Below are positions 1 through 58,273 of a stretch of 64,000 bases of DNA, in pieces. How positions within the stretch are numbered: the first letter of the stretch is position 1; each line of letters opens with the position of its first letter. This stretch comes from Candidatus Jorgensenbacteria bacterium. GTDB lineage: Bacteria; Patescibacteriota; Minisyncoccia; UBA6257; GWB1-50-10. A model generated the notes under the pieces. The model searched no databases. It saw only the letters and a program-made list of their open reading frames with translations, and was not told the origin of the DNA. The stretch covers positions 16,650-80,649 of the forward strand of contig JAZDPW010000024.1 in the NCBI GenBank assembly GCA_043797305.1, in the 5' to 3' direction. The position numbers and the translations under genes were made by a program.

Positions 1-837
1 CTCGTCAGTAACGAGGGACGGCTCGTCAATAATAACATCAAATGTAAATCCTTTGGGCAATAATTGCTGTATGCTTTTTTTAATAGACTTCGCTTCTTCC
101 GGGATAAAGCGAATATCAAGCCAAACGGTACAGTCGTCAGGAATTTTGTTGAGTGTTTTATTGGTAGTATCGATCCCGTTCACGCTCACTGTCGTTGCCC
201 AAACTTCATGATCAGGAACCGGATATTTCTTCCGTAAAATGTTGAGAAATTCGTTTATCTTCCAGATCGCGTTGTTTCCCTCCCAAGGATACGCGCCGTG
301 TGACGATTTTCCTTTGGCACGAATTTTTACCTGCAAAACTCCTTTTATCTTTCGTACAATGTCGAAATTAGTCGGTTCGCCGGCAACAACAAACTCCGCT
401 CTTACTCCTTTCTCAATTTGGTATTTCGCACCGTTAAATCCCCCGATTTCCTCGTCGGTAACCAGCTGCAGCCCAAGAGGATAAGAAACTTTTCCGGCTA
501 CCTCTTTGAAAGTCGCAATAAGACAAGCGGTATTCGCTTTCATGTCCATAGACCCGACACCATAAAGTTTGTCTCTCTCTACTTTCGGAACATATTGATT
601 CTTTTTCCCCGGGATAACGTCCAAATGGCCGGTCAAAATTATTTTAAATTTCCGGGGTCTCTTTTTTGCGTTAAAAATCAACGCACTCTTAATGCCGTTG
701 CGTTCAAACCGTTCTATTGCATACCCCTTCATACTCGACAAGGCTAATCTTAAAACCTTGTCTAACGCTTTCGCATTGCCTGCAATGGACTTTATAGAAA
801 TAAACTTTTTTGTAAGAGATACAATATCCCGTGGCAT
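1..837 (-). CDS. M20 family metallopeptidase (ArgE/DapE/LysK-like); 3' end cut by the window edge
   Basis: Hand translation of the minus strand from ATG at 837: MPRDIVSLTKKFISIKS...ILTGHLDVIPG...LYGVGSMDMKANTACL...LVTDEEIGGF. Clear paralog of the intact 363-aa M20 peptidase at 61168..62259. Absent from the ORF track because it runs off the edge; the plus-strand ORFs 239..484 and 418..747 are its antisense shadows. Confidence 0.75.
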   Translation of the reverse strand, partial: MPRDIVSLTKKFISIKSIAGNAKALDKVLRLALSSMKGYAIERFERNGIKSALIFNAKKRPRKFKIILTGHLDVIPGKKNQYVPKVERDKLYGVGSMDMKANTACLIATFKEVAGKVSYPLGLQLVTDEEIGGFNGAKYQIEKGVRAEFVVAGEPTNFDIVRKIKGVLQVKIRAKGKSSHGAYPWEGNNAIWKINEFLNILRKKYPVPDHEVWATTVSVNGIDTTNKTLNKIPDDCTVWLDIRFIPEEAKSIKKSIQQLLPKGFTFDVIIDEPSLVTDE

Positions 838-895
838 AAATTGAAAAAGCTAGCCGTGCGTTTGCGTAATTATAACGCAAACGCACGGCTTTTGC

Positions 896-2191
896 TTAAC
901 ACACAATCTCGGCATAGACCGCCGAAGAGTTTCCGTGGATTCGGCCCTTACGCACCTCTTCGGTATCCGTCGGCATGAGATTCCGAACCCCTCCAAGAAA
1001 CTTAGGGCATCCATCTACCATACCGAAGAAAACCCGGTCAATGAACGTATAGACCTTTCCGTCGTCCGTGTTGGTGACAACAGGAGTAGTTATCTCCGGC
1101 TGAACGACGTAACTTCCCCGCTGACTAATGCCTCGCGCCAATGCCTTGCTCCCGTCGCGCATAATTCCGGCCGCATGGCCGTAGCACCCGTAAGTACCCT
1201 TAGCGGGCTTGCATCGGAGCATCGCTGCCTTGGGTTTGGTATACCCCTGCTCCCGAAGAAATGCCTCGAACTCCGGGGAGCGGAGTTCCGCCATATCCTT
1301 GATCGGGAATGCCATACCCATCGGTGACATGTATTCCTTGGTGTCATTGATCCGGCGCGAATCGCCTACAGGCCAATCCGGATTATCTATGCTGAAAGTC
1401 AGGGCATTCTCCTTGATAAGCCGACGCATCTCGCTGTCGCTAAGTAGTGGGTGCGTTACCAAGAAGCTCGGGTACTGGAGTTTAATCACCGGATCCGAAG
1501 CCCTAACGTACAGTAGGTACTCGCACTTGCCTCCGTTAGAGGTGAGGTAACAACTAAACTCGTGAGGATCGAAAAAGTGGTCAAATCCAGACAACTCTCT
1601 CACCTCCGCGTCGGTTAGACGCGCGCTACCGTGCCTGCCGAATTCAGACTCCAACATAATTCTGTACTTCGGTTCGGTCACCGCCAGAAGCGCGATAGGT
1701 TTGCCGAATTGTCTTCGGATATCATCCAAGAGCACCAAGAACCGCGTCTTGAAGAAGGAATCCCGCCCGTCCTGCGGAAACAGATTCTCCAAAAGCTGAT
1801 ACATAGCGATGGAGTTTTCGATCTCGAAAACTCCCTTCCGCAGAATCTCGCGGACTGTTTCCTCGGGCATATCGCCTACCTCTTCCAAAAACGTCTCGGG
1901 CAACCCGACCATATCGACTTGGACACACCAGTTGATCGGGCTATCGCCCAAACAGTACTGATAGTCAGTGTCCCACTCGCGGTTTGCCGCCACCAAAGGA
2001 GCAAAGACCCGGTTGTACTCACTGTACAAGTTCCCCATAGCTTCAACCACCACTTCAGGGTACTTGGTCACGTAACCGGGTAGCGTTTGGAACGGCCCCA
2101 ACAAGGATTTGATATCTGTACGGACTACCACACCACCCAACGAGGCGAACGCCGGCTCATTCGCGTGCCGGTCAAGAAGCGACCTAGTCAT
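896..2191 (-). CDS. conserved hypothetical protein, putative ATP-grasp-type amide ligase; paralog of 62379..63779
   Basis: 431-aa ORF. Motifs resemble the ATP-grasp B-loop (LRCKPAKGTYGCYGH, cf. KPxxGxxGxG) and an SYVVQPEI segment. Roughly half of positions are shared by eye with the 466-aa ORF at the other end of the window. It lies immediately upstream of an M20 peptidase, as does its paralog. Confidence 0.45.
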   Translation of the reverse strand: MTRSLLDRHANEPAFASLGGVVVRTDIKSLLGPFQTLPGYVTKYPEVVVEAMGNLYSEYNRVFAPLVAANREWDTDYQYCLGDSPINWCVQVDMVGLPETFLEEVGDMPEETVREILRKGVFEIENSIAMYQLLENLFPQDGRDSFFKTRFLVLLDDIRRQFGKPIALLAVTEPKYRIMLESEFGRHGSARLTDAEVRELSGFDHFFDPHEFSCYLTSNGGKCEYLLYVRASDPVIKLQYPSFLVTHPLLSDSEMRRLIKENALTFSIDNPDWPVGDSRRINDTKEYMSPMGMAFPIKDMAELRSPEFEAFLREQGYTKPKAAMLRCKPAKGTYGCYGHAAGIMRDGSKALARGISQRGSYVVQPEITTPVVTNTDDGKVYTFIDRVFFGMVDGCPKFLGGVRNLMPTDTEEVRKGRIHGNSSAVYAEIVC

Positions 2192-2431
2192 TTTGTCTTC
2201 TCCTATGCGTAAATTGTATTGTCAAAGAACGTTTCCGTTTTAAAACAAATCGGCCGCTCAAGGAGCGGGCATTACTAAATTTCTAAAAATCGAACAAAAC
2301 TCGCTCCTCAAACGGGATACGAGTTCCACCAAACCGATGTTCTATATCGAATGTTCATCTGATTGAAGTATACCAAATACATATGCGTTGTCAATAACAG
2401 CAAAAAAACCTCTATTTCAAGGCTCTCGGAT

Positions 2432-2923
2432 TCAATTAAGGGTTAAATCCAATTTTTTCATTATAATACCGACTGTTTCTTCCGGTGTCTGGCCGGCGTT
2501 ATTAATAACCTCCCCAAAATCCGGAGTGGGTATTCCGATATCATAATGGTGTTTAATCCTGTCCTTTTCCCAATCGGTCGGCTTTCTCCGACCTTGTCCC
2601 GACATCACGGTTTCCATATCCGGAGCCAAGGTAAATACACGAATATCAACATGGCAATCTTTTAATCCTTTGTTCATAAAGTCGTAATTCTCCCGAGACA
2701 GCGGATACGGAACAATGCAGTGAATATTATTACTCACAAAATTCTTTATAACGGATAAAGCGTTTTCGAGGTTTAAAGGAACCGCCTCATCGATCGGCAT
2801 CCACTCTATCATTTCGTGAAAAACGTCTATTTCTATCAGAGCGGATTTTGGTATCTTCCCCGCAAGAATTTTTGCTACCGTGCTCTTGCCAGCGTTTATC
2901 GAACCGTTGATAAAAATAACCAT
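2432..2923 (-). CDS. P-loop kinase, chloramphenicol-phosphotransferase-like (AAA_33/zeta-toxin-like fold)
   Basis: N-terminal Walker A IFINGSINAGKST resembles the CPT-family ILNGGSSAGKS. About 160 aa, typical for this family. Confidence 0.5.
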   Translation of the reverse strand: MVIFINGSINAGKSTVAKILAGKIPKSALIEIDVFHEMIEWMPIDEAVPLNLENALSVIKNFVSNNIHCIVPYPLSRENYDFMNKGLKDCHVDIRVFTLAPDMETVMSGQGRRKPTDWEKDRIKHHYDIGIPTPDFGEVINNAGQTPEETVGIIMKKLDLTLN

Positions 2924-2929
2924 AATAAT

Positions 2930-3667
2930 TTATTCGTGCCGGCGGGCCGCTTCACGGTAAGAGCAATATTCGCAGTTCGGAGAAAGCGCCGGCAAGTCGC
3001 CGGACATGCATTTGTGGGCATCAACGACAGCTCTCTCAACCCAGGCGTCGCTCCCGGTATAAGAGATGATTTCCACCTTGAATTCCAGCTTGCCGTCGAA
3101 AGCTTTTTTGTCCTTGTCGCCGTTTGCGTAAACGAAGTAGCCGGTGTCCGAAACCTTGAATCCGTTCTGGCGCAGGAGCCAGGTATAGATTTCCATCTGC
3201 CGTTTGTAGGATTGACGGTATTCGGCATCGAGGGTTATCTTGGCGTTCGTGCTCGTCGCCTTGTAATCGACGACGATAAGTTCCTTCGCTTCGTTAATCC
3301 AGACATCATCAACCGCGCCGGTGATAAAAAGATTAGTCGGGCGATGCAAAAATCCCACACCCTTGAAGTTTTCCCGCCACTCGTCGATGTTATCGTGGGC
3401 GAAAGGAACGGCTTCCACGCCGTACGCTTTCATCAAAGGGTGAACCGAGCCCGCCGCCCGGTGAATGTCGAACTCTTTTTTCAGCAAGTAGTCCACGGCG
3501 GAATTCAGGGTGAAAGGAAAACCGGGCGGGCGGCCGACGCCCAAGCGGCGGTCAAGATAAAAACAGCGGGGGCACTCCAAAAAAAGTTCTATCTTGCTCC
3601 GCGACAGGCGAAAAGGCTCCGGCGAACCGGGATCGAAAATATTTCTGCTTCGGGTGCCGTTTGCCAT
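2930..3667 (-). CDS. PD-(D/E)XK nuclease, Cas4/RecB-like, with a 4-Cys cluster (orphan, no CRISPR nearby)
   Basis: Motifs AVDDV...EAKELIVVDYK (D/E-x-K core), an N-terminal CPRC and a C-terminal C-x13-CEYC, as in Cas4/AddB Fe-S nuclease domains. Start taken at MANGTRS (ATG at 3667); the ORF-track start at 3739 adds an unlikely leader. Confidence 0.55.
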   Translation of the reverse strand: MANGTRSRNIFDPGSPEPFRLSRSKIELFLECPRCFYLDRRLGVGRPPGFPFTLNSAVDYLLKKEFDIHRAAGSVHPLMKAYGVEAVPFAHDNIDEWRENFKGVGFLHRPTNLFITGAVDDVWINEAKELIVVDYKATSTNAKITLDAEYRQSYKRQMEIYTWLLRQNGFKVSDTGYFVYANGDKDKKAFDGKLEFKVEIISYTGSDAWVERAVVDAHKCMSGDLPALSPNCEYCSYREAARRHE

Positions 3668-4054: not shown

Positions 4055-6067
4055 TTACAGCTTTCTTTTTTTGAGAAAAACGGCGTTTACCGCGACAATC
4101 ACGGTGCTCATCGACATCAAAAATCCCGCAAGAGCCGGCTCGAGGAAAATACCTTTGAAAGCCAGCGCGCCCGCGGCAAGAGGAATCGCGACCACATTGT
4201 AACCGGTCGCCCAAAAAAGGTTTTGAATCATTTTATTGTAGGTAAGGCGGGATAATTTGATGATTTTGGGAATGTCGCGCGGGTCGTTTTTGACGAGAAT
4301 GATGCCGGCCGACTCGATGGCGACGTTGGTGCCGGCACCGATTGCGATTCCCACGTCGGCTTGGGTCAGGGCCGGCGCGTCGTTTATGCCATCCCCGACC
4401 ATCATCACCTTCCCGCCCTCCGACTGGAGATATTTCACTTTTTCCAGCTTCTCGCCGGGCAAAACCCGCGCGAAATATTCGTCAATTCCCAATTCCGCAG
4501 AAACTTCACGGGCTACGTCTTCCGAATCACCCGTTATCATGGCGACTTTAATCCCCAATTTCTTCAAGGCGGTTACGGCCTCTTTTGCCTCCGGCCGCAC
4601 AACGTCGGCTACCAAGATACTGCCGATTTTTCGTCCGTCCGCTTCCACTTGAATGTCCGCTCCGCCCCGGTGGCCGACGAAAACTTTTTGCCCTTCCACC
4701 TCCGCTTCTCCCCCGACGCCTGCGATGCGCCGGTAGTTTTTCGCATCCGGCACGACAAGTCCGCGAGCCCGCGCCTCCCGAACTATTGCTCTGGCGATAG
4801 GGTGCTCCGAATGGACATCCACGGCGGCGGCGAGAACAAGCGTTTCCTCGGAGCTTACCCGGGTAATTCCAAATTCCCCTTTGGTCAAAGTACCGGTCTT
4901 GTCGAAAAGAACAAGCGTCACATTCCGAGCTGCCTCAAGCGCCAAACGTCTTTTTACCAAAAACCCATTCTCGGCCGCCTTAGTAGTCGAGATTGAAGCG
5001 ACAAGAGGAATAGCAAGCCCCAGGGCGTGAGGACAAGCGACGACGAGAACCGCGACCATCCGGCTTACGGCAAAAGCCGGGTCGGATAAAGTAAGCCAGG
5101 TAATCAAGGTGATACCGCCCACCACAACGGCGATGATGGTAAGGTAATAAGCCGCCCTGTCGGAGAGTACCTGCAGGCGCGACTTCGAAGCTTCGGCTTC
5201 GCGCACCAAGCGCATCACACCGGCCAAAAACGTATCGTCACCGATTTTCGTCACTTTGACCTTGAGTGAACCGTCGCCCAAAATTGTGCCGGCAATAACC
5301 GCATCACCCGCCTTTTTGCGCACCGGCTTGGATTCACCGGTAATGATCGATTCGTCGACATCCGATTCGCCGCTCAAGACCGCTCCGTCGGCGGGAATCT
5401 TCCCGCCGGGTTTTACGAGCATCACGTCGCCGATTTTCAGTTCCGAGAGCGGAATTATTTTCGTTCCGCTCCCTATAATTACTTCCGCGGTATCCGGCAA
5501 AAGCTTCGAAAGCTCCTTTAGGGCGCCTTTTGCGCCCGTTACCGCCCGCATTTCCATCCAATGGCCCAAGAGCATCACCGTAATAAGAGTGGCAAGCTCC
5601 CAATAAAGCGGCTCGCCGCCGCCCAAAAAAGTAACGGCGACACTGTAGAGGTAAGCGGTGGAAATCGCAAGGGCGATCAATGTCATCATCCCCGGCAGCT
5701 TGGCCTTAAGTTCCCGATAGGCCGAGGTAATGAAAATCAATCCGCCGTAGAAAAAGATGACGGACGAAAGAACGAACGACAGATACTCCGAGCCCGGAAA
5801 CTTCGGCGCTTCGTATCTCAAGAGCGACTGGACGATGTCGGAATAAGCGACGACGGGCAGGGACAAAACCAAACTCACCCAAAATCTGGTTTTGAAAATA
5901 TTGGTCGAGTGCCCCTCTCTCCCGTGATTATGGCCGTGACGCTCACGAGAAACTTTCTTTTTCTCGGGGATCAGATTCATACCGCACTCCGGACAGAGCC
6001 CGGGCGCGTCCATTACCACCTTCGGGTGCATGGGACATGTGTATTTTTCCTCTTTCATACCCCGCAA
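4055..6067 (-). CDS. copB: heavy-metal translocating P1B-type ATPase, CopB-like (CPH motif)
   Basis: DKTGTLT phosphorylation motif, TGES, GDGINDAPAL hinge, and transmembrane CPH (ACPHALG). N-terminal CPMHP...CPECGM metal-binding motif. 670 aa. Confidence 0.85.
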   Translation of the reverse strand: MRGMKEEKYTCPMHPKVVMDAPGLCPECGMNLIPEKKKVSRERHGHNHGREGHSTNIFKTRFWVSLVLSLPVVAYSDIVQSLLRYEAPKFPGSEYLSFVLSSVIFFYGGLIFITSAYRELKAKLPGMMTLIALAISTAYLYSVAVTFLGGGEPLYWELATLITVMLLGHWMEMRAVTGAKGALKELSKLLPDTAEVIIGSGTKIIPLSELKIGDVMLVKPGGKIPADGAVLSGESDVDESIITGESKPVRKKAGDAVIAGTILGDGSLKVKVTKIGDDTFLAGVMRLVREAEASKSRLQVLSDRAAYYLTIIAVVVGGITLITWLTLSDPAFAVSRMVAVLVVACPHALGLAIPLVASISTTKAAENGFLVKRRLALEAARNVTLVLFDKTGTLTKGEFGITRVSSEETLVLAAAVDVHSEHPIARAIVREARARGLVVPDAKNYRRIAGVGGEAEVEGQKVFVGHRGGADIQVEADGRKIGSILVADVVRPEAKEAVTALKKLGIKVAMITGDSEDVAREVSAELGIDEYFARVLPGEKLEKVKYLQSEGGKVMMVGDGINDAPALTQADVGIAIGAGTNVAIESAGIILVKNDPRDIPKIIKLSRLTYNKMIQNLFWATGYNVVAIPLAAGALAFKGIFLEPALAGFLMSMSTVIVAVNAVFLKKRKL

Positions 6068-6888
6068 CTGCCGCCGCCTGCGCCTTCCGGCGGATTAAAT
6101 TCGGCGAGAATTCGGTTGAAACCCGAGTAACTCGAAAAATCGGGTCCTAAAATTTCTTTCGGGTCCGCCGTCGCCAAGCTCCGGCCCTTTGATTCGAGAT
6201 AATCGGCGATAACGCGGTAAGTGTCCGGAAACCATGAAGAATTCACCTGAAGCGCCGCCCGGTACATTTCTTCTTCGCTCGCCCCCTCCGCGGCCATAAG
6301 CTCCAGGAGCCCCAGCATCGCCATCCCGTGATTACAATCGGGGAAGTAAGTTGAATTGCCGCAACAAGGCCGATAAATATTCTTTGAGACGCGTAGAACG
6401 AGTTCCTGCTGTTCCTTGGTTAAAACAACAAATTCGTGGCGCGAGTAATGCTCCATCGCGTCACCGCGCGAGAACGTCCAGCCGCCGGTTGAAGCGAAAT
6501 TGCCCGCTCCGCCATAGCGGGGGTCGGCCATCGGTCCCTCCTCAAGAATCGGATTTTTGTTGGCGAGACCAAAAGCCCATAAGAGGTTCAAAACCTCACC
6601 CGAATTCTCGGGCGTCATCACCAAATTGCCGCCTTTCGCAAAGAGATTGCTTGTTTCTTCGCTCGTTCCTCCGCGATTGGAATAAAGCGCCTGGAATTTT
6701 TCTCCGTCAATTACTCCTGTTTTAACGAGCCTGTCACTCAAATCGCCCCACTTTACGGGCAAAACGAACCCGCCGGAAGGCGGAACCGCTTCGGTTTCCC
6801 TTTCATCCAAGCCATTCCGGTAAAAAAACGAAATGGCAATCAAAGAAATGGAAATTAAAATACTTATCGGAATTAATTTTTTGTTCAT
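6055..6888 (-). CDS. membrane-anchored/secreted hypothetical protein with Cys/His cluster (CCGNSTYFPDCNHG), possible metal-binding
   Basis: N-terminal hydrophobic anchor (MNKKLIPISILISISLIAISFF). Overlaps the copB 3' end by 13 nt, so it is operonic. No recognisable catalytic motif. Confidence 0.4.
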   Translation of the reverse strand: MNKKLIPISILISISLIAISFFYRNGLDERETEAVPPSGGFVLPVKWGDLSDRLVKTGVIDGEKFQALYSNRGGTSEETSNLFAKGGNLVMTPENSGEVLNLLWAFGLANKNPILEEGPMADPRYGGAGNFASTGGWTFSRGDAMEHYSRHEFVVLTKEQQELVLRVSKNIYRPCCGNSTYFPDCNHGMAMLGLLELMAAEGASEEEMYRAALQVNSSWFPDTYRVIADYLESKGRSLATADPKEILGPDFSSYSGFNRILAEFNPPEGAGGGSCGV

Positions 6889-6905
6889 AGATATATTTAG
6901 GTATA

Positions 6906-7265
6906 TTAAGGAAGTAAACAACCGCTCTCCTGCGACAACCTTTGAAGACCCTGCTCGCCCTCAAAACGGCGGCCGTCTCCGAAAATCCAGGTCGGATAAC
7001 CCTCTATCCCCGCCGCGACGCATTTTTCAGTTTCCTCGGTGCATTCAACGTAGGGCACCAACCGGAACGAATCGCCGAATCTTTTCTTTTCGTTCTGGCA
7101 GTGCGGACACGAGTAAGCGCCGTACATAACCACTTTTTTCTCCGCAAGGCAGGCGGCAAAACCGTCGTAGGCGCCGCCCTCCGGCCCGCCCGGCGAGAGA
7201 AAAATTGCCACGCCCACGATGACAACGACAATAACCGCAAAAATCAAAACAAGTTTCTTTTCCAT
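6906..7265 (-). CDS. membrane-anchored thioredoxin-fold thiol:disulfide oxidoreductase (CPHC active site)
   Basis: N-terminal TM helix followed by AYSCPHCQNEKK (CxxC of the Trx/glutaredoxin fold). Start taken at MEKK. Confidence 0.6.
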   Translation of the reverse strand: MEKKLVLIFAVIVVVIVGVAIFLSPGGPEGGAYDGFAACLAEKKVVMYGAYSCPHCQNEKKRFGDSFRLVPYVECTEETEKCVAAGIEGYPTWIFGDGRRFEGEQGLQRLSQESGCLLP

Positions 7266-7270
7266 GTCGG

Positions 7271-7741
7271 TCAGCAGCAATTTTTCATTTCATCCTCCAG
7301 TTCGGCGATTTTCCGTTTATCCTGCGCCGGCGGCCTTTCTTTAAGGAAGGGCCTCACGAAGTAAAGATACATGACCGTCATAAGAACCGCCGCTTCAATA
7401 ACGAGAGTGAGCCAGCTCACGTTTGCGAGCGCGAAATAGACAAGAACGAAACCGGGCACGATGACCGCTGTCCTGAATTTCAGGAAATTTTCCGACGCGA
7501 TGTTCAGCCTTTTCTCGCCCTGATAAGCCATACCGACAACGGAGCCTCCCATGAGTACCGCGACCAACAGCCCGTAACTTACGACCGATAACCAACCTAG
7601 AAGAATCCCAACGAGCAACAGGAACCAGGTACCGGAAACGCCGGCGCAAATGGGACAAACTTTAAACGGCAGAAGCTTATTGACGGACCAAGTAATGAAC
7701 GTAATGACCAGGATTGAGATTGTAACGATTATTATTTCCAT
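7271..7741 (-). CDS. integral membrane protein with CxxC (VCPICAG) at a TM boundary, VKOR/DsbB-like candidate
   Basis: 4-5 predicted TM helices, CPIC motif and a C-terminal CC. Sits between the Trx-like gene and ccdA. Assignment by context and motif only. Confidence 0.3.
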   Translation of the reverse strand: MEIIIVTISILVITFITWSVNKLLPFKVCPICAGVSGTWFLLLVGILLGWLSVVSYGLLVAVLMGGSVVGMAYQGEKRLNIASENFLKFRTAVIVPGFVLVYFALANVSWLTLVIEAAVLMTVMYLYFVRPFLKERPPAQDKRKIAELEDEMKNCC

Positions 7742-7758: not shown

Positions 7759-8541
7759 TTAGATGAGGAATATAAGAAATCCGAGAAGGATCATCGCGAT
7801 TCCCCCGCCGAGACGCATTTCTTTTCTTTCTTCCCTCTGCCAGTTCTGCACTTTTTCAAGCAACGCATCGTTCGAAGCAATAAGAAGGATGATGACAAGC
7901 GGCAGAATGAAAATCAGGTTGTAGAGGAGAAGATAACCCAGGCCCGCGGCATAAGTCGCCGAATCGTGAAGAAGTCCCAATACCATAAGATAAGGCCCGC
8001 CGGTGCAAGGAAACTCGCAGAGTCCCACGAGCGCCCCGAGAACGAAAGCGGTCGGCACTGAGGCCTTTTCCATCAGTTCGGCAATTTTGTGATGAACGGC
8101 ACCGGGAATCTTGAGCTTAATCGGAAACCGGGGAAAAAACTCGTTTATGATGTTTATCGCTCCCAGGACGATAAGAAGCACGGCGCCGACTTTAGCCATG
8201 AAGTTCGGCGTGTTGAAAAGGTGGAGCGCCCGCAAAATCCCCAGGCCAATCATGACGTAAACGACGAAGAGTCCGGCAACGTAAGCGCCGCCGATTTTCA
8301 GTATCCCCGAGCGCAATTTTCCGATGCTGAAGAGAAAAGCGATGGTGAGAATGAGAACCGAGAACGCGCAGGGATTTATGCTGTCGATTACGGCCGCGAC
8401 CGCAATAAGCGGCAGAAGCAATTTTCCGCCGTCGCTCACGCCCCACAAAAATTCCTGTCCCGTTCCGGTGAAACGGAAGAAAAGGAAAATCCCGAGGAAC
8501 AGAGCGGCGAGAACGATTGGAACGATTATTTTCTTTCTCAT
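7759..8541 (-). CDS. ccdA: cytochrome c-type biogenesis protein CcdA / DsbD transmembrane domain
   Basis: Polytopic membrane protein carrying the two conserved cysteines of the DsbD/CcdA family (DSINPCAFSVL and CEFPCTGGPYL). Confidence 0.75.
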   Translation of the reverse strand: MRKKIIVPIVLAALFLGIFLFFRFTGTGQEFLWGVSDGGKLLLPLIAVAAVIDSINPCAFSVLILTIAFLFSIGKLRSGILKIGGAYVAGLFVVYVMIGLGILRALHLFNTPNFMAKVGAVLLIVLGAINIINEFFPRFPIKLKIPGAVHHKIAELMEKASVPTAFVLGALVGLCEFPCTGGPYLMVLGLLHDSATYAAGLGYLLLYNLIFILPLVIILLIASNDALLEKVQNWQREERKEMRLGGGIAMILLGFLIFLI

Positions 8542-9047
8542 GGAGTTACGGTCGCTTTAATTCCGAGCACGACGATTAGGTTCCCCGACTCGTCTTCAAG
8601 ATAAATTTCCCTCTCTACAGGTCCCACGCCGGCCGGACCGTGGGCAGCCGGGTCAAAAACCACCGAAATAACGGTTTCTTCCCCGGGCTCTATAACGCTC
8701 TTCAACGGCGGCACGAACCCACCGTGCCCCGGCATTCCGAAGGGACCAATTCTCCCCCCGCCGTCTTTTAAGAAATAGGCGGCGGTACACATACAGGAAG
8801 TGTACATTCTCTCTATTTTTACGACCTCGCCGCTCCCGTTCCTGATTTTGAAGTCGTGACTGACGTCACCCGAGGCCATGCTGATTGTTCCGAAGTCGAA
8901 AGACCGTTCCTCGGACACGATTGCGGAGCTTATGTCGGCACGGAAGTTTCCGCCGACTTCCGGCGCCGGCTTGGTAAGGAGTATGAGGCCGAGGCTTCCC
9001 AGGATAACCACCGCGGCGATTATTAACGATTTATTTTTTGTATTCAT
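8538..9047 (-). CDS. DUF1573 domain protein (membrane-anchored, periplasmic)
   Basis: N-terminal anchor followed by a conserved SCMCT CxC motif in an approximately 100-aa beta-rich domain typical of DUF1573. Overlaps ccdA by 4 nt. Confidence 0.55.
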   Translation of the reverse strand: MNTKNKSLIIAAVVILGSLGLILLTKPAPEVGGNFRADISSAIVSEERSFDFGTISMASGDVSHDFKIRNGSGEVVKIERMYTSCMCTAAYFLKDGGGRIGPFGMPGHGGFVPPLKSVIEPGEETVISVVFDPAAHGPAGVGPVEREIYLEDESGNLIVVLGIKATVTP

Positions 9048-9126
9048 GATTTTTTACGGTTAAAAACAAAAGGCCCCAAAATTTGGGTCAAAAAACGCGC
9101 TAAAGCGAACTTTCGAGGGTTCGGCT

Positions 9127-9522
9127 TCAACGCGCCAAAGCGAAAGTCGGGCTTGTTTCCAGAAGCGAAAACCACCTTCTTATTTTCCGCAGGGACGGCG
9201 ATTGCTCTCCGTCGCTTCCGGATGAACCCGAGAAAAACGGAACGGCAAGAACGGTTTTCCCTCGCAAACCGATTAGGGACGAGGAAAGAAAACCGAGAAT
9301 CAGAAAAAGAGTAAGAAGTCCGAGGTTATTGAAAACGGCGCTCGAAAAGTTCTTGAAAAAGCCGATGTGAAAAGAGGCGAAACCAAACAGGTTTTCCGGA
9401 CAGGCCGCTCCTTCCATAAGCGAGACGAGGCAGTGAGCCGAACCGTTCGCCATCACCGAAAAACCGAAAAGAGCCACCAGGAAAAAGCTCGAGAGTAAAA
9501 TAGATTTCAAAACAAACTCCAT
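9127..9522 (-). CDS. hypothetical membrane protein
   Basis: Start taken at MEFVLKSILL (the longer ORF-track start would overlap the enolase 3' end). Three hydrophobic segments and a Cys pair (SAHCLVSLMEGAACP). Confidence 0.35.
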   Translation of the reverse strand: MEFVLKSILLSSFFLVALFGFSVMANGSAHCLVSLMEGAACPENLFGFASFHIGFFKNFSSAVFNNLGLLTLFLILGFLSSSLIGLRGKTVLAVPFFSGSSGSDGEQSPSLRKIRRWFSLLETSPTFALAR

Positions 9523-9544
9523 ATCATAATTATACACCGGTTTT

Positions 9545-10741
9545 TCAGGAAAACAAACGGATGAACTCCCGAAACTTGGATAACCTTTCTCCGGCCGGGG
9601 CGCCGATTTTGACGCCGTAGGCGCCGGCTGCTTTTGCAAAATGAATCAGGAAATTGTCTTCTGTCTCCCCCGACCGGTGCGAGACAATACACTTTAATCC
9701 GTTCTCGTGGGCCACCGTCATTGCCGCGCAGGTTTCCGAAACGGTGCCGATTTGATTAGGTTTTATTATTACGCCGCCTATCATCTTCCCCGCGGCCGCC
9801 GCCTTGATGAGCTCCAGGTCGGTAACCGTAAGGTCGTCGCCTATCACCAGTTTTCCGCCGCCCGAACCCGAAGAAAGTTTCACAAAACCCGTTCCGTCGT
9901 TCTCGTCAAAGGGGTCTTCAATCGAACGAAGAAGCGGTGCCTTCCGGAAATAATCCGAATAAACACCCTCAAGTTCGCTCGAAGTGAGTTTCTTCCTCTC
10001 AAAAACGTAATAACCTCCTTCATAAAAACTCGAGGCAGCGGCATCAAGTCCGAGAGAGAATTCTCCGGCAAGACCGTTTTTCTCTATTTCCCCGCCCAAG
10101 AGTTCAATCGGCTCGAAGTTGTTCTTAAAGTCCAGGGAATAACCGTTTTCATCGCCGAGCTTCAGGTTCGGCAAGCCGTACCGCTCTTTCAGGGTTTGCC
10201 CCACCGATTCGTAAAGTCCCGAAAGCTTGCGGCAGGTTTCGGCAACTTTCCCCTTCGACTCGGCCACGACCAAAAATTCCTGGATATCGAGGTTGCTCTC
10301 GGCATGAACGCCACCCTCGATGAAATTGGAAAAAATCCGGGGCGGTTCCGATTCGGCACTGCGGGGGAAAAACTCGCTTCTTAACGTCTGCCAAAGCTCA
10401 AGCCCGTTTCCGCCCGCAAGAGCGCGGGCGAAAGCGAGCGACAAGCCAAGCATCAGATTCCCGCCGAGCTTGGCTTTGTTCGGCGTTCCGTCGAGAACGA
10501 TAAGAAATCCGTCAAACTCCTTGATATTCCCGAAATCTTTTCCGACAAGCTTTTCCTCTATGTTTTTGAGAGCTTTTTTCGCTTCATCCGGCGGCAAAAC
10601 CGCCGCCTCCCGGCTGCCGCGGCTCTTCCCGGAAGGGATTTGGGCGAAAAATTCGCCGCCCCCGGCTTTAATTCCGACTTCAATCGTCGGCTCTCCCCGA
10701 GAATCCGATATTCGTTTTAAAATTACGTCGTCAATTTTCAT
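9545..10741 (-). CDS. eno: enolase (phosphopyruvate hydratase), short form
   Basis: N-terminal ISDSRGEPTIEV (cf. LDSRGNPTVEV), SHRSGETED, IKPNQIGT. 398 aa. Confidence 0.9.
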   Translation of the reverse strand: MKIDDVILKRISDSRGEPTIEVGIKAGGGEFFAQIPSGKSRGSREAAVLPPDEAKKALKNIEEKLVGKDFGNIKEFDGFLIVLDGTPNKAKLGGNLMLGLSLAFARALAGGNGLELWQTLRSEFFPRSAESEPPRIFSNFIEGGVHAESNLDIQEFLVVAESKGKVAETCRKLSGLYESVGQTLKERYGLPNLKLGDENGYSLDFKNNFEPIELLGGEIEKNGLAGEFSLGLDAAASSFYEGGYYVFERKKLTSSELEGVYSDYFRKAPLLRSIEDPFDENDGTGFVKLSSGSGGGKLVIGDDLTVTDLELIKAAAAGKMIGGVIIKPNQIGTVSETCAAMTVAHENGLKCIVSHRSGETEDNFLIHFAKAAGAYGVKIGAPAGERLSKFREFIRLFS

Positions 10742-21954: not shown

Positions 21955-22034
21955 TCCTTAGAATGAAAAAATTTGAACAACCTGTCAAGTTTTTAAAATG
22001 GAAGCGGGGAACCGATGTTGAGTCGGCTCCCCGC
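21955..22034 (-). promoter_or_regulatory. intergenic cassette: terminator hairpin of the LysM gene, then a TTGACA -35 and a conserved CAAATTTTTTCATTCTA block upstream of gene 21480..21920
   Basis: Minus strand: GCGGGGAGCCGAC...TCGGTTCCCCGC, then TTCCATTTTAAAAAC, then TTGACA-17nt-CATTCT, then AAGGAGG-4nt-GTG. Confidence 0.5.
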
Positions 22035-22080
22035 TTTTGCTTCCGCTTGTGCTTTCCGCCTTAGTAGGCGGGTTCCCTTG

Positions 22081-23448
22081 TTAGGAGGCCGCAGGCGTCT
22101 CCACGGTCTCGGGCTCCGGCGCGGACTGGATGTCCGGCTCGGGCTCGGCGACGGGCTCGTCGACCCCTGCGAGGGTCGCGCGCCCGCTGAAACCGAGGAA
22201 GTTCGCGCCGGGCTCGACGGGCGCCTTGGTCTCGATGACGACATAATCGCCCTCGATGACCGGCTCGTCATCGAGGAACCCGATGACGCGGTTGCCGACT
22301 GCCCGCACGGTGACCCGCCGGCTCGCCTGCCGCCGCGCCCGCTCGGCCTGCTCGACGGCCTCCCAGTCGGGGGCCGAGTGGATAGCGGCGTACTCGAACG
22401 GCTCAATGAGCGCGCCCTCGATCCAGTTCCGCCGGTACTGGATCACGTTCGCGCAGAACCCGAGCACGCAGACACCCTTGAACTCGTCCACGATCTCGTC
22501 GCCCCGACGGACGACGACGTCCAGGATCCATCCCGGCTCGCGCACGAGGACGACCTCGCGACGCGTGTCGTCACCGTAGGTCACCTCGAAGGTCCGACCG
22601 GGGCGCGACGAGATGAGGACGCGCCGTTCGTTCTGGCGCTCGAAGGTGAGATCGAACATGTCCGCGCCCTGGTGAAGACGCTGGTAGGCGGCCTGTGCCG
22701 CGTCGTCGAGAATCTCTTCTCGATTCGCCTCGGTCACACCCTCGAACTGAGAGGGTGGACCAGCCATGACACCGTCCTCAACCCCATCGGGCAGCGGCGG
22801 CATGTGGCCTCGCATGATCACGAAGTCGGCCCGGCGCTGCTCGGCCAGGCGACGCTCGTGTGAGACTCGCTCATTGTCGAGCAGCTCGTCCATGTTCCTC
22901 AGCTCCGATCGGAGAGACTTGATGGTCTCCTCGAGTCTCGCGACGACCCTCCTGAAACGCCGATTGTCGGCGAAGAAGCAGACGACCGCCACGAGGGCGA
23001 TGACGAGGAGTGCCCACACCCACCAGGGGCCGAGAGAGGACGCTTCCTCTGCGCCGGCGACCGAACCGGCGGCGACGGGTACCGGCGCTTCCGAGGCCGG
23101 TACGACCACTGAGCTTGCACCCTGACATCCCACCGTGGGGATGGCGAGGTGCTCGCCCGGGAAGACCAGCACGATCTGCCGCCCGTTACGAACGGACAGC
23201 CGACCCTGCTCCTCGAGGTAGGGATTGAAACCGTAGATCTCCTCCCAGCGAAGCGCGTCACCGCACTTCTCGTAGGCGAGGTCCCAGAGGGTCGAACCCT
23301 TCACAACCACGAACTCCTCCGTGGTCACGACGACCTGCTGTGTCGGCGGCACTGCCTCATACTGGCGCAGAGCGGCCCCTCCGAAGATAAGCGGCGCTGG
23401 GATCAGACAGCCGAGGACGAAGAGCACCTTCTTGAGGAACTTCTTCAC
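22081..23448 (-). CDS. LysM domain-containing membrane protein
   Basis: GTG start with GGAGGTG upstream. Signal peptide, then LysM domain (GSTLWDLAYEKCGDALRWEEIYGFNPYL...QIVLVFPGEHLAIP), a TM helix (WWVWALLVIALVAVVCFF) and a charged coiled-coil-like segment. The plus-strand ORF 22015..22863 is its antisense shadow (GC3 supports the minus strand). Confidence 0.7.
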   Translation of the reverse strand: MKKFLKKVLFVLGCLIPAPLIFGGAALRQYEAVPPTQQVVVTTEEFVVVKGSTLWDLAYEKCGDALRWEEIYGFNPYLEEQGRLSVRNGRQIVLVFPGEHLAIPTVGCQGASSVVVPASEAPVPVAAGSVAGAEEASSLGPWWVWALLVIALVAVVCFFADNRRFRRVVARLEETIKSLRSELRNMDELLDNERVSHERRLAEQRRADFVIMRGHMPPLPDGVEDGVMAGPPSQFEGVTEANREEILDDAAQAAYQRLHQGADMFDLTFERQNERRVLISSRPGRTFEVTYGDDTRREVVLVREPGWILDVVVRRGDEIVDEFKGVCVLGFCANVIQYRRNWIEGALIEPFEYAAIHSAPDWEAVEQAERARRQASRRVTVRAVGNRVIGFLDDEPVIEGDYVVIETKAPVEPGANFLGFSGRATLAGVDEPVAEPEPDIQSAPEPETVETPAAS

Positions 23449-23507
23449 GTTCCACCTCCATATGAAATTGTGAGGTACAGAAAAACGGCTTTCACCGTTA
23501 CCTTATT

Positions 23508-23585
23508 ATTATAATTTATATTTTTGAAAATGTCAAGCTAAATTAAAAAAGAAGCGGGGGCGCGGTGTGGAAACGCACGCCCCCA
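23508..23585 (-). promoter_or_regulatory. intergenic cassette: rho-independent terminator followed by a consensus sigma70 promoter TTGACA-17-TATAAT for the LysM gene
   Basis: Minus strand: GGGGGCGTGCG...CGCGCCCCC then GCTTCTTTTTT, then TTGACA(23536..23531)-ttttcaaaaatataaat-TATAAT(23513..23508), then GGAGGTGG upstream of the GTG. Confidence 0.7.
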
Positions 23586-23604
23586 TTGCTCTTCTGCGAC
23601 CGGC

Positions 23605-23778
23605 TCACGAGATGTCCTCTCTTGCTCGCTCCTCGCGACCAATCGCCTTGAATTCCTTGACGATTGCGGGAAGGAGGAAAATCAGGAGGACAACCTTCGC
23701 TAATCGCGAAGGAATCGAAACGCAGGCGAAGAAGCCTAGCGCCACGAGAACCTCCGCGACAACTGAATTGAGCTTCAT
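23605..23778 (-). CDS. small membrane protein (57 aa)
   Basis: ATG with GAGGAGG 5 nt upstream: MKLNSVVAEVLVALGFFACV...LLIFLLPAIV. Flanked by a terminator hairpin downstream and a promoter upstream. Confidence 0.5.
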   Translation of the reverse strand: MKLNSVVAEVLVALGFFACVSIPSRLAKVVLLIFLLPAIVKEFKAIGREERAREDIS

Positions 23779-23807
23779 AACCGCCTCCTCGGGGCAAGGG
23801 TTGCTAT

Positions 23808-23885
23808 CTATAGAATGAAAAAATTGACGCGACTTGTCAAATAAAAACGAAGGAGGGGCGCGGTGCTTCCGCACTCACGCCCCTC
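23808..23885 (-). promoter_or_regulatory. intergenic cassette: terminator hairpin followed by TTGACA -35 and the same conserved CAATTTTTTCATTCTA block as at 21955..21995
   Basis: Minus strand: GAGGGGCGTGAGTGCGGAAGCACCGCGCCCCTC then CTTCGTTTTTAT, then TTGACA-17nt-CATTCT, then GAGGAGG-5nt-ATG of the 57-aa gene. Confidence 0.55.
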
Positions 23886-23910
23886 TTGCTTATTCCTCGA
23901 CGGCTTGCCG

Positions 23911-24636
23911 CTACGAACTGCGGCGGCAGTCGACGTACTCGGCCGGGTCGAGGCCGAGCTCAACGAGATCGAGTCCCCGCCGGCAGGCCTTGAAGGCGAT
24001 CAGGTCGACCACTTCTTCGGCGCCGCTGACCTCGAGAAGCTGCAGGCGGACGTCGTTCAGGACAGCCCGCTTGAACTCCGCGGACGTCGTGCCGATCGCT
24101 CCCAACTTGCCGTCTCCGTCGCTCCGGAAGAAGATGGAAACGCTGTTGGACTCGAAGACGTTGCCGGGTGGGTTCAGGAGGTAAGCGATCTCCTCAACGA
24201 CATCGAAGGGGTCGTCGAGATAGACGAGTTCCAACCCTCCGTCGGCGAGCGCATGCCAGTGGCACGGTTCGGCCTTGAGCCGGACCAGCCGCGGCATGGA
24301 GAGAACAGCGAGGAACCTCTTCGCGAGTTCCCGCCGCTCGACCTCCGCGAGCGCTTCGGAAACCGTCGGTCTCTGCGCCGGCGGAGTCCGACTCTCCTCG
24401 ATGAGCTGGTTGGTCGACTCGACTATCCGGTCGAGGCGAACCCGCTCGCGGCAGATATCCACGAACTGCCGCTCATAGTCGGAGGGCGGAGTCGCGTAGA
24501 CGGTCTCGATCTCATCACCTACTCTCGGCGTCAGCGTCCTGCCGACCGCGATGTAGATCATGATCATGAGAGATAGCGCGCCGAGTGTTGCGGCGGCGGG
24601 CTTGAGCCACACCGGGAGCCTCTTCATGGTACCCAT
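23911..24636 (-). CDS. membrane-anchored hypothetical protein
   Basis: N-terminal anchor MGTMKRLPVWLKPAAATLGALSLMIMIYIAV. High GC3 on the minus frame. The plus-strand ORFs 23834..24184 and 23863..24576 are judged antisense shadows. Confidence 0.55.
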   Translation of the reverse strand: MGTMKRLPVWLKPAAATLGALSLMIMIYIAVGRTLTPRVGDEIETVYATPPSDYERQFVDICRERVRLDRIVESTNQLIEESRTPPAQRPTVSEALAEVERRELAKRFLAVLSMPRLVRLKAEPCHWHALADGGLELVYLDDPFDVVEEIAYLLNPPGNVFESNSVSIFFRSDGDGKLGAIGTTSAEFKRAVLNDVRLQLLEVSGAEEVVDLIAFKACRRGLDLVELGLDPAEYVDCRRSS

Positions 24637-35045: not shown

Positions 35046-36200
35046 CTATTTTTTATTCTTCTCGGATTTACCTGAATTAAGTAGTTTCTTGGGTACTCGC
35101 GGTTCTTCTTCAATTCTTTTTATTCCTTCGCCAACAGGAATATTACCACCAAGGTCATTGATTCGATCTATTTCGGGTCGTACTCTAGTTTCAAAGGAAC
35201 CGATAGCTTCGTTAAACTTTTTCGTCGCCTGTGAAATATTTAGACCTATTCCGCCAACATGACCAAAAAATGTTTCCAATCTACCTTTTAATTCCTCAAC
35301 CTCATTTTTAATCTTCGTTGCATTTTCTGTAACTCTGTACTGTTCCCATCCATTACGGATTAAAAGTATCAGCGGTATTATTATAGACCGACTTGCCAAC
35401 ATTACATTCTTACTTTGGGCTTCAGAGTATAGATCATTGTCGTGTTGAAGAGCTTCTAGTAATGCACTTTCAATCGGGACAAACATAACTACATATGGAA
35501 TTTTCGTGTCAACATATTTCTGATATTCCTTACTCGACAAATCCCTAATTTTCTTTCTTAGGCCGTCAATAAAATTCTCGATGTGCTTAATTCTTTCTTC
35601 TGGTTGTTCTTCTTCGCGTGCTTTCTCGAACTCATACAAACTTGCCAAGCTCGCTTTGGAATCCACCGCGAGGGTCATCCCTCCTGGAAGACGAATAGTA
35701 AAATCTGGCCTTAAAATAGACGAACCTTCACCCGAAACAGTTTCTTGAACATCAAAATCCGTTCCTTTGGCCATCCCCGCTTTCTCAAGTAAATTACTTA
35801 GGGTTGCCTCTCCCCATCTGCCTATAGCAGTACCACTGGAAGAAAGCACCGTCTTGAGCATCTTGGCTGAATCGCTTATTTCCTGACCAGTTTTCAGAAC
35901 TTGCCCAATGCCGGCAACCAGTTTACCCACTTGTTCGTTTTGTTCCTTCTCCAACTTATCAACCCTCGTTCCTACCGATTCAACCAGATTTTTAACGTTT
36001 TTTTCCGCGTCGCCGAATTTCGTGCCAGCTAGTCGCAGAAAATCCTCCGAACTTTGGCGGAGGACGTCGCCTGCAATAACTTTAAATTTATCCTCAAGTT
36101 CCTCCGGGCTCTTTCCTTTACGTTTAAATAAGAACCAACCCGCCAATAAACCGATGACGCCACCCACAACAAACGATATTAAAAACTCTAAATAGATCAT
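35046..36200 (-). CDS. rmuC: DNA recombination protein RmuC family
   Basis: N-terminal TM helix, long coiled-coil, and the RmuC core with TAIGRWGEATLSNLLEKAG (cf. RGNWGExxLERVLE). 384 aa. The start overlaps the stop of the upstream gene (ATGA). Confidence 0.75.
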   Translation of the reverse strand: MIYLEFLISFVVGGVIGLLAGWFLFKRKGKSPEELEDKFKVIAGDVLRQSSEDFLRLAGTKFGDAEKNVKNLVESVGTRVDKLEKEQNEQVGKLVAGIGQVLKTGQEISDSAKMLKTVLSSSGTAIGRWGEATLSNLLEKAGMAKGTDFDVQETVSGEGSSILRPDFTIRLPGGMTLAVDSKASLASLYEFEKAREEEQPEERIKHIENFIDGLRKKIRDLSSKEYQKYVDTKIPYVVMFVPIESALLEALQHDNDLYSEAQSKNVMLASRSIIIPLILLIRNGWEQYRVTENATKIKNEVEELKGRLETFFGHVGGIGLNISQATKKFNEAIGSFETRVRPEIDRINDLGGNIPVGEGIKRIEEEPRVPKKLLNSGKSEKNKK

Positions 36201-38977: not shown

Positions 38978-38982
38978 ATTAG

Positions 38983-39633
38983 TTATTGAAACAGGTTTTT
39001 AAATTCTTTCTCTAGCCAGTCCAAGAACGCTAGGACTTTTTTATTCTTAGCCGCCGCGGCCGATTGTTTTAGCTGTTCAAGGTATTTAGATAATAGGTGT
39101 TGGGGAGTATACGGCACAGCTTTCAGGAAGGACAAAACTTCGTAATCAGTAACCGAAAAATCCTTGTTTTGCCATTTTTGGAACAAATGAGATTTTTCCA
39201 TTTCTAAAACGTCATCTTGCGGAGATCGTCCGCGCGAACGTTTTGATGATGAAGCCGCACTTAGTTTTAGTCTGGTGGGATGTTTTAGTAGATCCTCAGT
39301 TTGTAATGCAACCTCCTTTCCCGTTTCTGTCAGACAAAATCCATTCTCGATGTTACCGGTTGCCCAATTTTTTCGTTTAGGATCCGCTAATCTTCTAAGG
39401 GACTTATTGATCCTGTTCGTATCTGGATACTCTTTGAAATTAGCCATGGAGAATTTATTTGGAAACATTTTGAAAAGACCAACAACTATGTGATCGAAAT
39501 ATAGGGGTATTTTTTTTCTTTCTAAGACGATGAGGCTATAAACCACCAATCTGTCCAAATCAAAATTTTCGTAGCTCTTAACAGAGAGTGGTCTGAAACT
39601 AAATATTATTTTTTTGTAATCGATGTTTTTCAT
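38983..39633 (-). CDS. hypothetical protein (216 aa), second gene of the AT-rich operon
   Basis: Long ORF in an AT-rich context, 6 nt upstream of the 926-aa gene, and overlapped by the 72-aa gene by 4 nt. No motif recognised. Confidence 0.45.
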   Translation of the reverse strand: MKNIDYKKIIFSFRPLSVKSYENFDLDRLVVYSLIVLERKKIPLYFDHIVVGLFKMFPNKFSMANFKEYPDTNRINKSLRRLADPKRKNWATGNIENGFCLTETGKEVALQTEDLLKHPTRLKLSAASSSKRSRGRSPQDDVLEMEKSHLFQKWQNKDFSVTDYEVLSFLKAVPYTPQHLLSKYLEQLKQSAAAAKNKKVLAFLDWLEKEFKNLFQ

Positions 39634-39848
39634 AATTTAAATTCTGTTCCGCGTTTTTGCTCACCTCTAAATCTGGCTTCGGCTTTCATTAGTGAATCAC
39701 GGAGCGCTCCGAATATTTTTCGCAGCTGCTCCGGTGTATATTCGTATAAACTTTTATTAGACAGATTTGAAAGGACCCTGATCTCGTTTAAGACTTTTCT
39801 GGTCCTTTTTTCTGCCAAACGTTTAAATCTTTCACTTTTGTTCTCCAT
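39630..39848 (-). CDS. hypothetical small protein (72 aa), first gene of the AT-rich operon
   Basis: ORF with a charged helical character. Its stop overlaps the start of the next gene. Confidence 0.35.
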   Translation of the reverse strand: MENKSERFKRLAEKRTRKVLNEIRVLSNLSNKSLYEYTPEQLRKIFGALRDSLMKAEARFRGEQKRGTEFKL

Positions 39849-39924
39849 AATATTTAATATACTCTTTAATATTATGTTGTAAAGTATATCACAAATACTT
39901 TTATAAAGTCAATACCACGACCTG

Positions 39925-39933
39925 TGGATAACT
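39925..39933 (-). promoter_or_regulatory. perfect DnaA box (TTATCCACA on the minus strand) about 80 nt upstream of the operon start. A second 7/9 match (TTATCCAAT) lies near 40116..40124
   Basis: Plus-strand tgtggataa read directly. An AT-rich tract lies between the box and the first gene. Confidence 0.5.
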
Positions 39934-57711: not shown

Positions 57712-57729
57712 TGAAGTTTTATTTAAGCA

Positions 57730-58044: not shown

Positions 58045-58273
58045 ACGTATATATTAACGCAGTGGATTTTGTAGTGTTTGTTTGAAAAAGTCAGAACCCA
58101 TTTTGAACGGAACTGACCGTCTCCGCTTCCCGCCTGCGCCAAGGCTTCGGCGGGCAGGCGCTCCGGCGGGACGCCCGGGCGAATTTCTGAAAAGGCGATT
58201 GCAGATGAATTTTAGCAGAGAAAATTCAAAAGAAAAAGACCGATCGGTTGTTACACCAATCGGCCACCTCGTA

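Follow-up and report, generated by a model that had tools for sequence, protein, structure and literature searches.

Both ends of the analysed window, a 64-kb stretch of DNA from a Candidatus Jorgensenbacteria genome, carry on the minus strand the same two-gene operon, in which the gene for a large protein (the ligase discussed below) is followed by a gene for an M20 hydrolase, as seen in the ORF listing and by direct translation. The features of the two module copies are:

1..837, minus strand: M20 hydrolase, copy 1; start at 837, reading past the window start, with the N-terminal 279 aa visible
852..890, minus strand: hairpin of copy 1; 16-bp perfect stem AGCCGTGCGTTTGCGT / ACGCAAACGCACGGCT, then a T-run, between the ligase stop and the M20 start
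896..2191, minus strand: ATP-grasp-fold ligase, copy 1; 431 aa, member of an unnamed CPR-specific family
2367..2394, minus strand: promoter-like site 5' of ligase copy 1; TTGACA-16-TATACT with an extended -10 TG, proposed from 11/12 consensus matches only
61061..61134, minus strand: tRNA-Ala(CGC), directly 3' of M20 copy 2; end of the module
61168..62259, minus strand: M20 hydrolase, copy 2; 363 aa, ArgE/DapE type with a dimerisation domain
62275..62303, minus strand: weak promoter-like site in the interval between the hairpin and M20 copy 2; TTGAAA-17-TAGTAT, proposed from 9/12 consensus matches only
62323..62357, minus strand: hairpin of copy 2; 14-bp perfect stem GGGGCCGTGCGCTC / GAGCGCACGGCCCC, then a T-run
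62379..63779, minus strand: ATP-grasp-fold ligase, copy 2; 466 aa

A 65-aa ORF that was called at the position of the tRNA gene is spurious. The second ligase copy has an insertion of ~27 aa ahead of its K-P-x-x-G-x-Y-G loop. In BLASTP comparisons, the two ligases are 50% identical (E 2e-153) and the two M20 proteins 62% identical over 278 aa (E 3e-135). The diverged two-gene duplication that an earlier note had read from the sequence is real: order and strand match, and pairwise alignment of the two modules shows clear homology for both genes. The shared motif blocks listed in that note all recur in the BLASTP alignments, except that the QPE motif is found in copy 1 only and reads QVE in copy 2. 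No third copy of the module is present in the 64-kb window. Among NCBI proteins, both ligases and M20 copy 2 have 100% identical matches from a Candidatus Jorgensenbacteria MAG, where the locus tags of the two ligases lie 69 genes apart on an 81,929-bp contig. The 61 kb separating the copies is filled with ordinary chromosomal genes, which include those for enolase, a PEP-utilising enzyme, glycerate kinase, a MacB-type ABC system, class II ribonucleotide reductase, CysRS, DnaB and RecR, and the genes flanking copy 1 differ from those flanking copy 2.

The ligases have no Pfam match at E values up to 1, including to PF03738 (GSP_synth); NCBIfam and PADLOC scans of both copies gave zero matches, and neither a single ligase sequence nor a profile of the family matched any PDB sequence. 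The family alignment behind this profile (A1) comprises 36 members with a mean column identity of 52%, and its 63 invariant residues are all kept in both window copies. The AlphaFold2 model built from A1 (pLDDT 91, pTM 0.91) is predicted to adopt a three-subdomain ATP-grasp fold, the structural neighbours of which are glutathionylspermidine synthetase (score 14.8), trypanothione synthetase (14.1) and 3n6x, a “putative GSP synthase” (13.8), followed by eukaryotic glutathione and homoglutathione synthetases (~13) and the fungal E-64 ligase Cp1B (12.4). Foldseek returned the same top matches for the model, whereas RimK and TTL-type enzymes are distant structural matches only. As modelled, the closest structural neighbours therefore belong to the GSP_synth family (GspS, TryS, YgiC, YjfC), and the predicted fold places the ligase in the glutathionylspermidine-synthetase/YgiC branch, which also holds the eukaryotic glutathione synthetases (GS), and not in the LysX branch. 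The earlier guess of an ATP-grasp enzyme was thus right at the level of the fold, as the structural neighbours indicate, but pointed to the wrong branch. At the level of sequence, the outcome was negative: besides the missing Pfam match, hhalign of A1 against an alignment of YgiC (A2) gave a probability of 0.2%, a test limited by the shallowness of A2 (≥77% identity). An HMM search of 1.84 billion representative proteins recovered 190 clusters of the ligase family (178 at E ≤ 1e-10). The matches do not trail off into weaker ones that would join the family to others, and all those with a specific taxonomic name belong to the Patescibacteria. Judged by sequence comparison, the family stands alone.

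In TryS and GspS, seven strictly conserved ATP/Mg residues occur in the order R-x-D, E-x-N, K, K, Q, R (PMC2427367). Invariant residues of the module ligase can be mapped by eye onto the same order, as Q91-x-D93, E123-x-E125, K285, K328, Q364 and R403, with K328 sitting in LRCKPxKGTYGCYGH. If this putative assignment holds, Gln stands in place of the Arg of R-x-D, and Glu in place of the Asn of E-x-N. Many members of the ligase family carry large N-terminal extensions of unknown fold, and a Pfam scan of these extensions in the long members gave zero matches.

The second gene is easier to place. M20 copy 2 matches the catalytic (PF01546, E 4.6e-24) and dimerisation (PF07687, E 1.3e-17) domains in Pfam, and its best family scores are to DapE and ArgE models, although it reaches 155 bits against TIGR01910, the DapE-ArgE subfamily (cut-off 217.6), and passes no NCBIfam equivalog cut-off, the best score being 161 bits against a cut-off of 381 (NF006399). 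Its nearest PDB sequence is 2rb7, followed by DapE structures. The module hydrolases form a subfamily of ~356–360 aa, at least 60% identical across more than 120 clusters that, as for the ligase, come from CPR metagenomes. All members of this subfamily share the catalytic Glu, four of the metal ligands and the His of the dimer domain, with H71, D98, E129/E130 and E154 as the conserved metal/catalytic residues, and the substrate-binding Arg of the DapE SDxR motif is retained. However, the full set of five ligands (His, Asp, Glu, Glu, His) is absent from all 51 members examined, since the C-terminal metal-binding His is gone: the position of DapE H349, the Zn2 ligand, is occupied by Gly in 48 of the 51, by Ala in one and by Ser in one, and never by His. 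An extra invariant His is found in the motif SSDARHF. The loss of a canonical metal ligand means that the activity of the enzyme may be altered.

The association of the two genes extends far beyond this genome. In ~50 of 54 other species-level genome loci, which span Microgenomates, Paceibacteria, Moranbacteria, Kerfeldbacteria, Peregrinibacteria, Dojkabacteria and others, the ligase gene is followed on its strand by a downstream M20 gene, in most cases with a gap of less than 130 nt. The same holds for all four contigs retrieved by protein look-up, where the M20 gene is directly adjacent in three and separated by a gene for a 321-aa protein in the fourth (L005). Clustering of the ORFs within ~6 kb found the ligase at 59 loci, the M20 protein at 52 and the next family at 4, so that no third gene is conserved near the module and the M20 gene is the sole conserved neighbour; nor is any leader conserved 5' of the ligase, near-identical relatives aside. 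Both proteins are ~50–60% identical across classes, about the level of housekeeping proteins, and the operon order is kept in genomes that otherwise share no synteny. Two loci depart from the simple pair. In a close relative (L006), the M20 gene behind a copy-1-type ligase is gone: after its first ~50 nt homology to the window stops, and a NUDIX-methyltransferase gene comes next, which implies that this copy lost its hydrolase. At L013, two tandem ligase genes precede a single M20 gene. Together, these cases indicate that ligase paralogy recurs and that one hydrolase can apparently suffice.

The two copies in the window are old. Their DNA identity of 59–63% and their third-codon identity at conserved residues of 0.44–0.50 speak against a wrap-around or an assembly repeat. 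In the NJ tree of the ligases, copy 1 groups with L006 (89%), L001/L007, L009 and L012 (L001 being 58% identical), and copy 2 groups with L023 (76%) and then with L019 (~60%), L022 and L029. Some relatives in other genomes are thus nearer to each window copy than the second copy of its own genome is (50% identity between the ligases). The NJ tree of the M20 proteins places the partner genes in the same way, with M20 copy 1 among the partners of copy-1-type ligases; a phylogeny of the peptidases had been proposed earlier as a check, and its agreement with that of the ligases supports duplication of the pair. Matching trees and closer outside relatives indicate that the module was duplicated, or transferred, as a unit long ago. 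The split between the copies would then be older than the separation of these lineages, unless one copy came from another CPR lineage. Lateral transfer of the second module from another CPR lineage, instead of duplication within the lineage, is possible, though it is given somewhat less than an even chance: the closer outside relatives would fit it, as would the GC3 of ligase copy 2 (0.75), which is above that of the rest of the window, but a closely related MAG, CAZGRD01, carries both ligase types (L006 and L023) in syntenic positions, and duplication of the ligase is seen elsewhere as well, in the tandem pair of L013. The NJ trees are star-like, fit either scenario and do not distinguish duplication from transfer. 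An assembly artefact, or the ends of a small circular replicon sequenced twice, has practically no chance of being correct and is ruled out by the divergence of the copies (50–62% identity in protein), by their differing flanks, by the housekeeping genes between them and by a source contig of 81.9 kb, the positions of the modules at the window ends being all that speaks for it. On the same grounds, the earlier note was correct in reading an old segmental duplication and no wrap-around. The duplication itself is an ordinary evolutionary event.

Between the two genes, each copy carries a hairpin that begins 5–21 nt past the ligase stop codon. Both hairpins are terminator-like, that of copy 1 having an MFE of -33.9 and a z-score of -7.4. 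Sites of the form CCGTG-N8-30-CACGG occur twice in the 64-kb window, against 1.1 expected by chance, and both are the module hairpins. The exact CCGTG/CACGG motif lies at the ligase-M20 junction of 11 other loci, and compensated variants (CCATG/CATGG, CCGCG/CGCGG, CCGTA/TACGG) at ~10 more, so that the hairpin recurs in more than 20 other genomes. In an alignment of 24 hairpins, the nine outer pairs are 94% paired and eight of the nine show changes on both sides, values that were reached by 0 of 500 shuffles and that compare with 22–48% pairing in slid registers; the 24 sequences were selected for forming hairpins, which makes this covariation test partly circular. Searches of the window and of 21 related loci against Rfam found no riboswitch or leader, only tRNAs, and the hairpin itself belongs to no Rfam family. 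In the simplest reading, the hairpin would be an intrinsic terminator or attenuator placed between the cistrons, which would hold the M20 gene to a lower expression than the ligase gene, and the lower GC3 of the M20 genes (0.44 and 0.56) compared with the ligases (0.65 and 0.75, like local housekeeping genes) agrees with such an expression difference. A protein-binding role for the conserved base of the stem is also possible. Taken together, the module joins a strongly conserved, CPR-specific ATP-grasp family to an atypical M20 partner that is fixed, with a conserved hairpin between the genes. The family is undescribed, in that no description of it was found in the searchable literature.

What the module might do is best approached through the chemistry of its relatives. 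The general scheme favoured here, at a probability of roughly 60%, is that of a synthetase/amidase pair that makes and removes one amide-linked compound. The first gene would encode an ATP-grasp carboxylate-amine ligase of the GspS/YgiC structural branch. Relatives of the GspS type use ATP-Mg to form an acyl-phosphate on a carboxylate, which is then attacked by an amine. By analogy, the module ligase would phosphorylate the carboxylate of its substrate with ATP-Mg, and attack of an amine on the acyl-phosphate would yield an amide together with ADP and Pi. M20 enzymes of the ArgE/DapE/CPG2/LysK type cleave amides of the form R-CO-NH-CH(COO-)-R', in which the amine part is an alpha-amino acid, and the second gene would encode an ArgE/DapE-type zinc amidohydrolase that removes the same amide-linked small molecule. 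A candidate product is a basic amino acid or a polyamine conjugated to a peptide or an amino acid, and the pair might represent a split analogue of the bifunctional glutathionylspermidine synthetase/amidase. The fold, the limits of the family, the conserved pairing, the age of the duplication and the hairpin are established here, whereas the chemistry, a common substrate and a regulatory function of the hairpin are inferred. A ligase and a hydrolase acting on one product would run a futile cycle unless regulated; in the proposed scheme, the terminator-like hairpin would hold hydrolase expression below ligase expression. Other points weigh on this scheme as well. Pfam, NCBIfam, the PDB profile search and hhalign provide no sequence-level link to any characterised ligase, two motif residues of the ligase appear to be exchanged in the by-eye mapping, the M20 protein has lost its canonical C-terminal metal-binding His, and adjacency is no proof of a shared substrate, all the more as L006 has a ligase without an M20 gene and L013 has two ligases for one.

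The same genes could instead act in sequence. CPR bacteria rely on scavenging, and the M20 enzyme might act on an N-acyl or peptide precursor obtained in this way, releasing an amino acid or diamino acid from it much as DapE or ArgE would. The ligase would then couple this product onward, for example to a cell-wall or cofactor precursor. This salvage route is considered unlikely. The top scores of the M20 protein to DapE and ArgE models, its retained SDxR Arg and the general dependence of CPR on scavenging are consistent with it; those scores, however, lie far under all DapE/ArgE equivalog cut-offs and one metal ligand is absent, while the ligase-first order and the hairpin ahead of the M20 gene fit a regulator or eraser better than a first step.

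The product might also be a macromolecule. RimK, tubulin-tyrosine ligase and the peptide-spermidine ligases are writer-type enzymes, and the module ligase could likewise add an amine or amino acid to a C-terminal or side-chain carboxylate of a conserved protein or cell-wall peptide, from which the M20 enzyme would remove it as a carboxypeptidase. The nearest structural relatives act on peptide C-terminal carboxylates, the high conservation of both proteins across a very divergent superphylum fits a macromolecular substrate, and the large N-terminal extensions of many members could be docking domains. This modification system is nevertheless considered distinctly improbable, as no candidate substrate gene is conserved nearby and RimK/TTL-type enzymes are only distant structural matches. 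Carrier-protein chemistry of the LysX/LysK type, in which the C-terminal Glu of a small LysW-like carrier would receive an amino acid from the ligase and the M20 enzyme would release the product, had been inferred in the earlier note from the combination of an ATP-grasp ligase with an ArgE/DapE/LysK-type M20 enzyme, which is indeed the same at superfamily level, but it was not borne out and has a very slim chance of being correct: none of the 1104 small ORFs within 1.5 kb of ~55 modules is LysW-like or conserved across lineages, neighbourhood clustering found no LysY/LysZ/LysJ-type genes beside the module, and the ligase, being of another branch, does not qualify as a RimK/LysX-type enzyme, so that the LysW pathway is essentially excluded. 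A defence system was likewise rejected, with no PADLOC match and no mobile-element context.

Returning to the synthetase/amidase pair, a more specific version can be sketched, although it is doubtful in this detail: an amide conjugate peculiar to the lineage would be made and removed by a system found throughout the CPR. The conjugate might be a metabolite of the peptide-polyamine or peptide-diamino-acid kind, comparable to glutathionylspermidine or trypanothione, or else a modification placed reversibly on a conserved protein or cell-wall peptide. The system would act through an unrecognised ATP-grasp family for the synthesis, an M20 enzyme with a lost metal ligand and the hairpin for tuning, and the two modules would differ in substrate specificity. 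In the very small genomes of CPR/Patescibacteria, few biosynthetic pathways can be recognised and a large share of the genes lack a known function. Conservation at housekeeping level, fixed gene order and occasional duplication indicate that the operon likely performs a core function specific to this lineage. Once the “hypothetical protein” is recognised as a GspS/YgiC-like ATP-grasp ligase, a family without annotation becomes a directly testable enzyme, for the product of which the M20 partner provides a built-in probe.

Among known systems, YgiC and YjfC are peptide-spermidine ligases according to their RefSeq product name and to Pederick et al. (2023), as cited in PMC12568646. The module ligase has no detectable sequence similarity to these proteins or to the synthetase domains of GspS and TryS (PF03738; no Pfam match, hhalign 0.2%); it further differs from GspS, TryS and YgiC in belonging to a CPR-restricted family and in the putative replacement of the motif Arg by Gln and of the E-x-N Asn by Glu, and its hydrolase partner is a separate M20 metalloenzyme, whereas GspS and TryS have a fused CHAP cysteine amidase. 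Identity to eukaryotic glutathione and homoglutathione synthetases and to Cp1B of the E-64 pathway is only ~10–14%; domain decorations and organisms differ, and none of those enzymes has an M20 partner. By sequence, the module M20 protein is closest to DapE and to 2rb7, an uncharacterised M20 protein of Desulfovibrio. It has kept the catalytic Glu of DapE, four of the metal ligands, the dimer-domain His and the SDxR motif, but it stays under half of each DapE equivalog cut-off, H349 is replaced and the His in SSDARHF is additional. The pairing itself has parallels: LysX/ArgX with LysK/ArgE also join an ATP-grasp ligase to an M20 enzyme of the ArgE/DapE/LysK type, and the hmrA-ldmS operon of S. 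aureus combines an M20D carboxypeptidase with an ATP-grasp L-amino-acid ligase, which are thought to make and cleave related dipeptides (PMC9486568). Like the module described here, hmrA-ldmS is a two-gene operon of an M20 peptidase and an ATP-grasp ligase, and it provides a precedent for such a pair.

Each of the two modules, in which a putative ATP-grasp ligase gene is followed by an M20 hydrolase gene, carries a terminator-like hairpin that follows the stop codon of the ligase and precedes the start of the M20 gene:

852..890, intercistronic hairpin of copy 1 (module on the minus strand)
62323..62357, intercistronic hairpin of copy 2 (module on the minus strand)

The base of the stem is conserved as RCCGTGY...RCACGGY with covarying pairs, and the hairpin recurs at this junction in many CPR lineages, at loci L001, L006, L009, L012, L013, L016, L017, L019-L023, L027, L029-L031, L033, L038, L040, L041, L052 and L058. 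The element has no match in Rfam. Its role could simply be that of an attenuating terminator, or it could be more specific, in regulation or in protein binding.

The composition of the module varies between genomes. In the closest relative, L006, positions 1950..3374 are 90.7% identical to window 789..2394, but the similarity stops ~50 nt inside M20 copy 1, and a gene for a NUDIX-methyltransferase fusion then begins. This genome has retained the copy-1 ligase together with the hairpin and has lost the M20 gene; alternatively, the junction might stem from a chimeric contig. Locus L013 (5998..10539) contains tandem ligase genes (5998..7380 and 7936..9318) followed by one M20 gene (9448..10539), a ligase duplication of independent origin with one hydrolase common to both. 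In four further loci, the module is adjoined by a gene for a P-loop NTPase (~320 aa, motif GTVGAGKSTL), whose Pfam matches are AAA-type and weak:

L005 7566..8531, between ligase and M20
L018 7315..8283, between ligase and M20
L035 7424..8344, between ligase and M20
L032 2802..3746, directly downstream of M20

The ligases themselves differ considerably in length. Many family members, above all those of Microgenomates, possess an in-frame N-terminal extension of ~500 aa or longer, for which no Pfam match was obtained. Dojkabacteria-type members carry a ~200-aa insertion immediately ahead of the Lys/Gly-rich loop. Such extended or inserted members are encoded at L008, L010, L011 and L014 (ORFs of 850-960 aa) and at L053, L054 and L056, and include the protein records P0122-P0128, P0161 and P0184. 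For ligase copy 1 (896..2191), the start in the NCBI call P0001 (391 aa) is placed 40 codons too late: family conservation within the 431-aa ORF sets in from ~residue 18 onward.

The GC3 values of the ligases (0.65 and 0.75 for copies 1 and 2) are far above those of their M20 partners (0.44 and 0.56), with housekeeping genes of the same window at 0.60-0.65; this gap may mirror unequal expression levels. Ligase copy 2 is GC-rich, and the numerous long ORFs antisense to it (within 62278..63830) are base-composition artefacts. Elsewhere in the window, GC content peaks at 0.625 (22001..24000) over a 455-aa ORF without Pfam match (22081..23448), and falls to 0.38 (36001..40000) over a 926-aa protein (36197..38977) that combines sigma-70 region 4 and DnaA C-terminal HTH domains and is encoded beside RmuC. 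Both segments may be foreign.

Beside module 2, the gene block at 57719..61059 is an indel island: the relative L023, syntenic elsewhere, has ~960 bp in its place. Its genes encode MazG, a PRTase-like protein, a PfkB kinase, a SLOG/LOG-like protein and a TrpR/YerC-like regulator, lending the island a nucleotide-metabolism flavour. A 65-aa ORF downstream of M20 copy 2 (60960..61157) overlaps tRNA-Ala(CGC) at 61061..61134 and is spurious.

The M20 partners depart from DapE at the metal site. At the position where M20 enzymes canonically have a C-terminal His that binds metal (DapE H349), all 51 partners in the family alignment carry Gly, Ala or Ser (A331 in M20 copy 2, 61168..62259). The His of their SSDARHF motif (H312), which corresponds to Phe in DapE, is invariant (n=51). 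These two substitutions suggest a metal site that is mononuclear or rewired.
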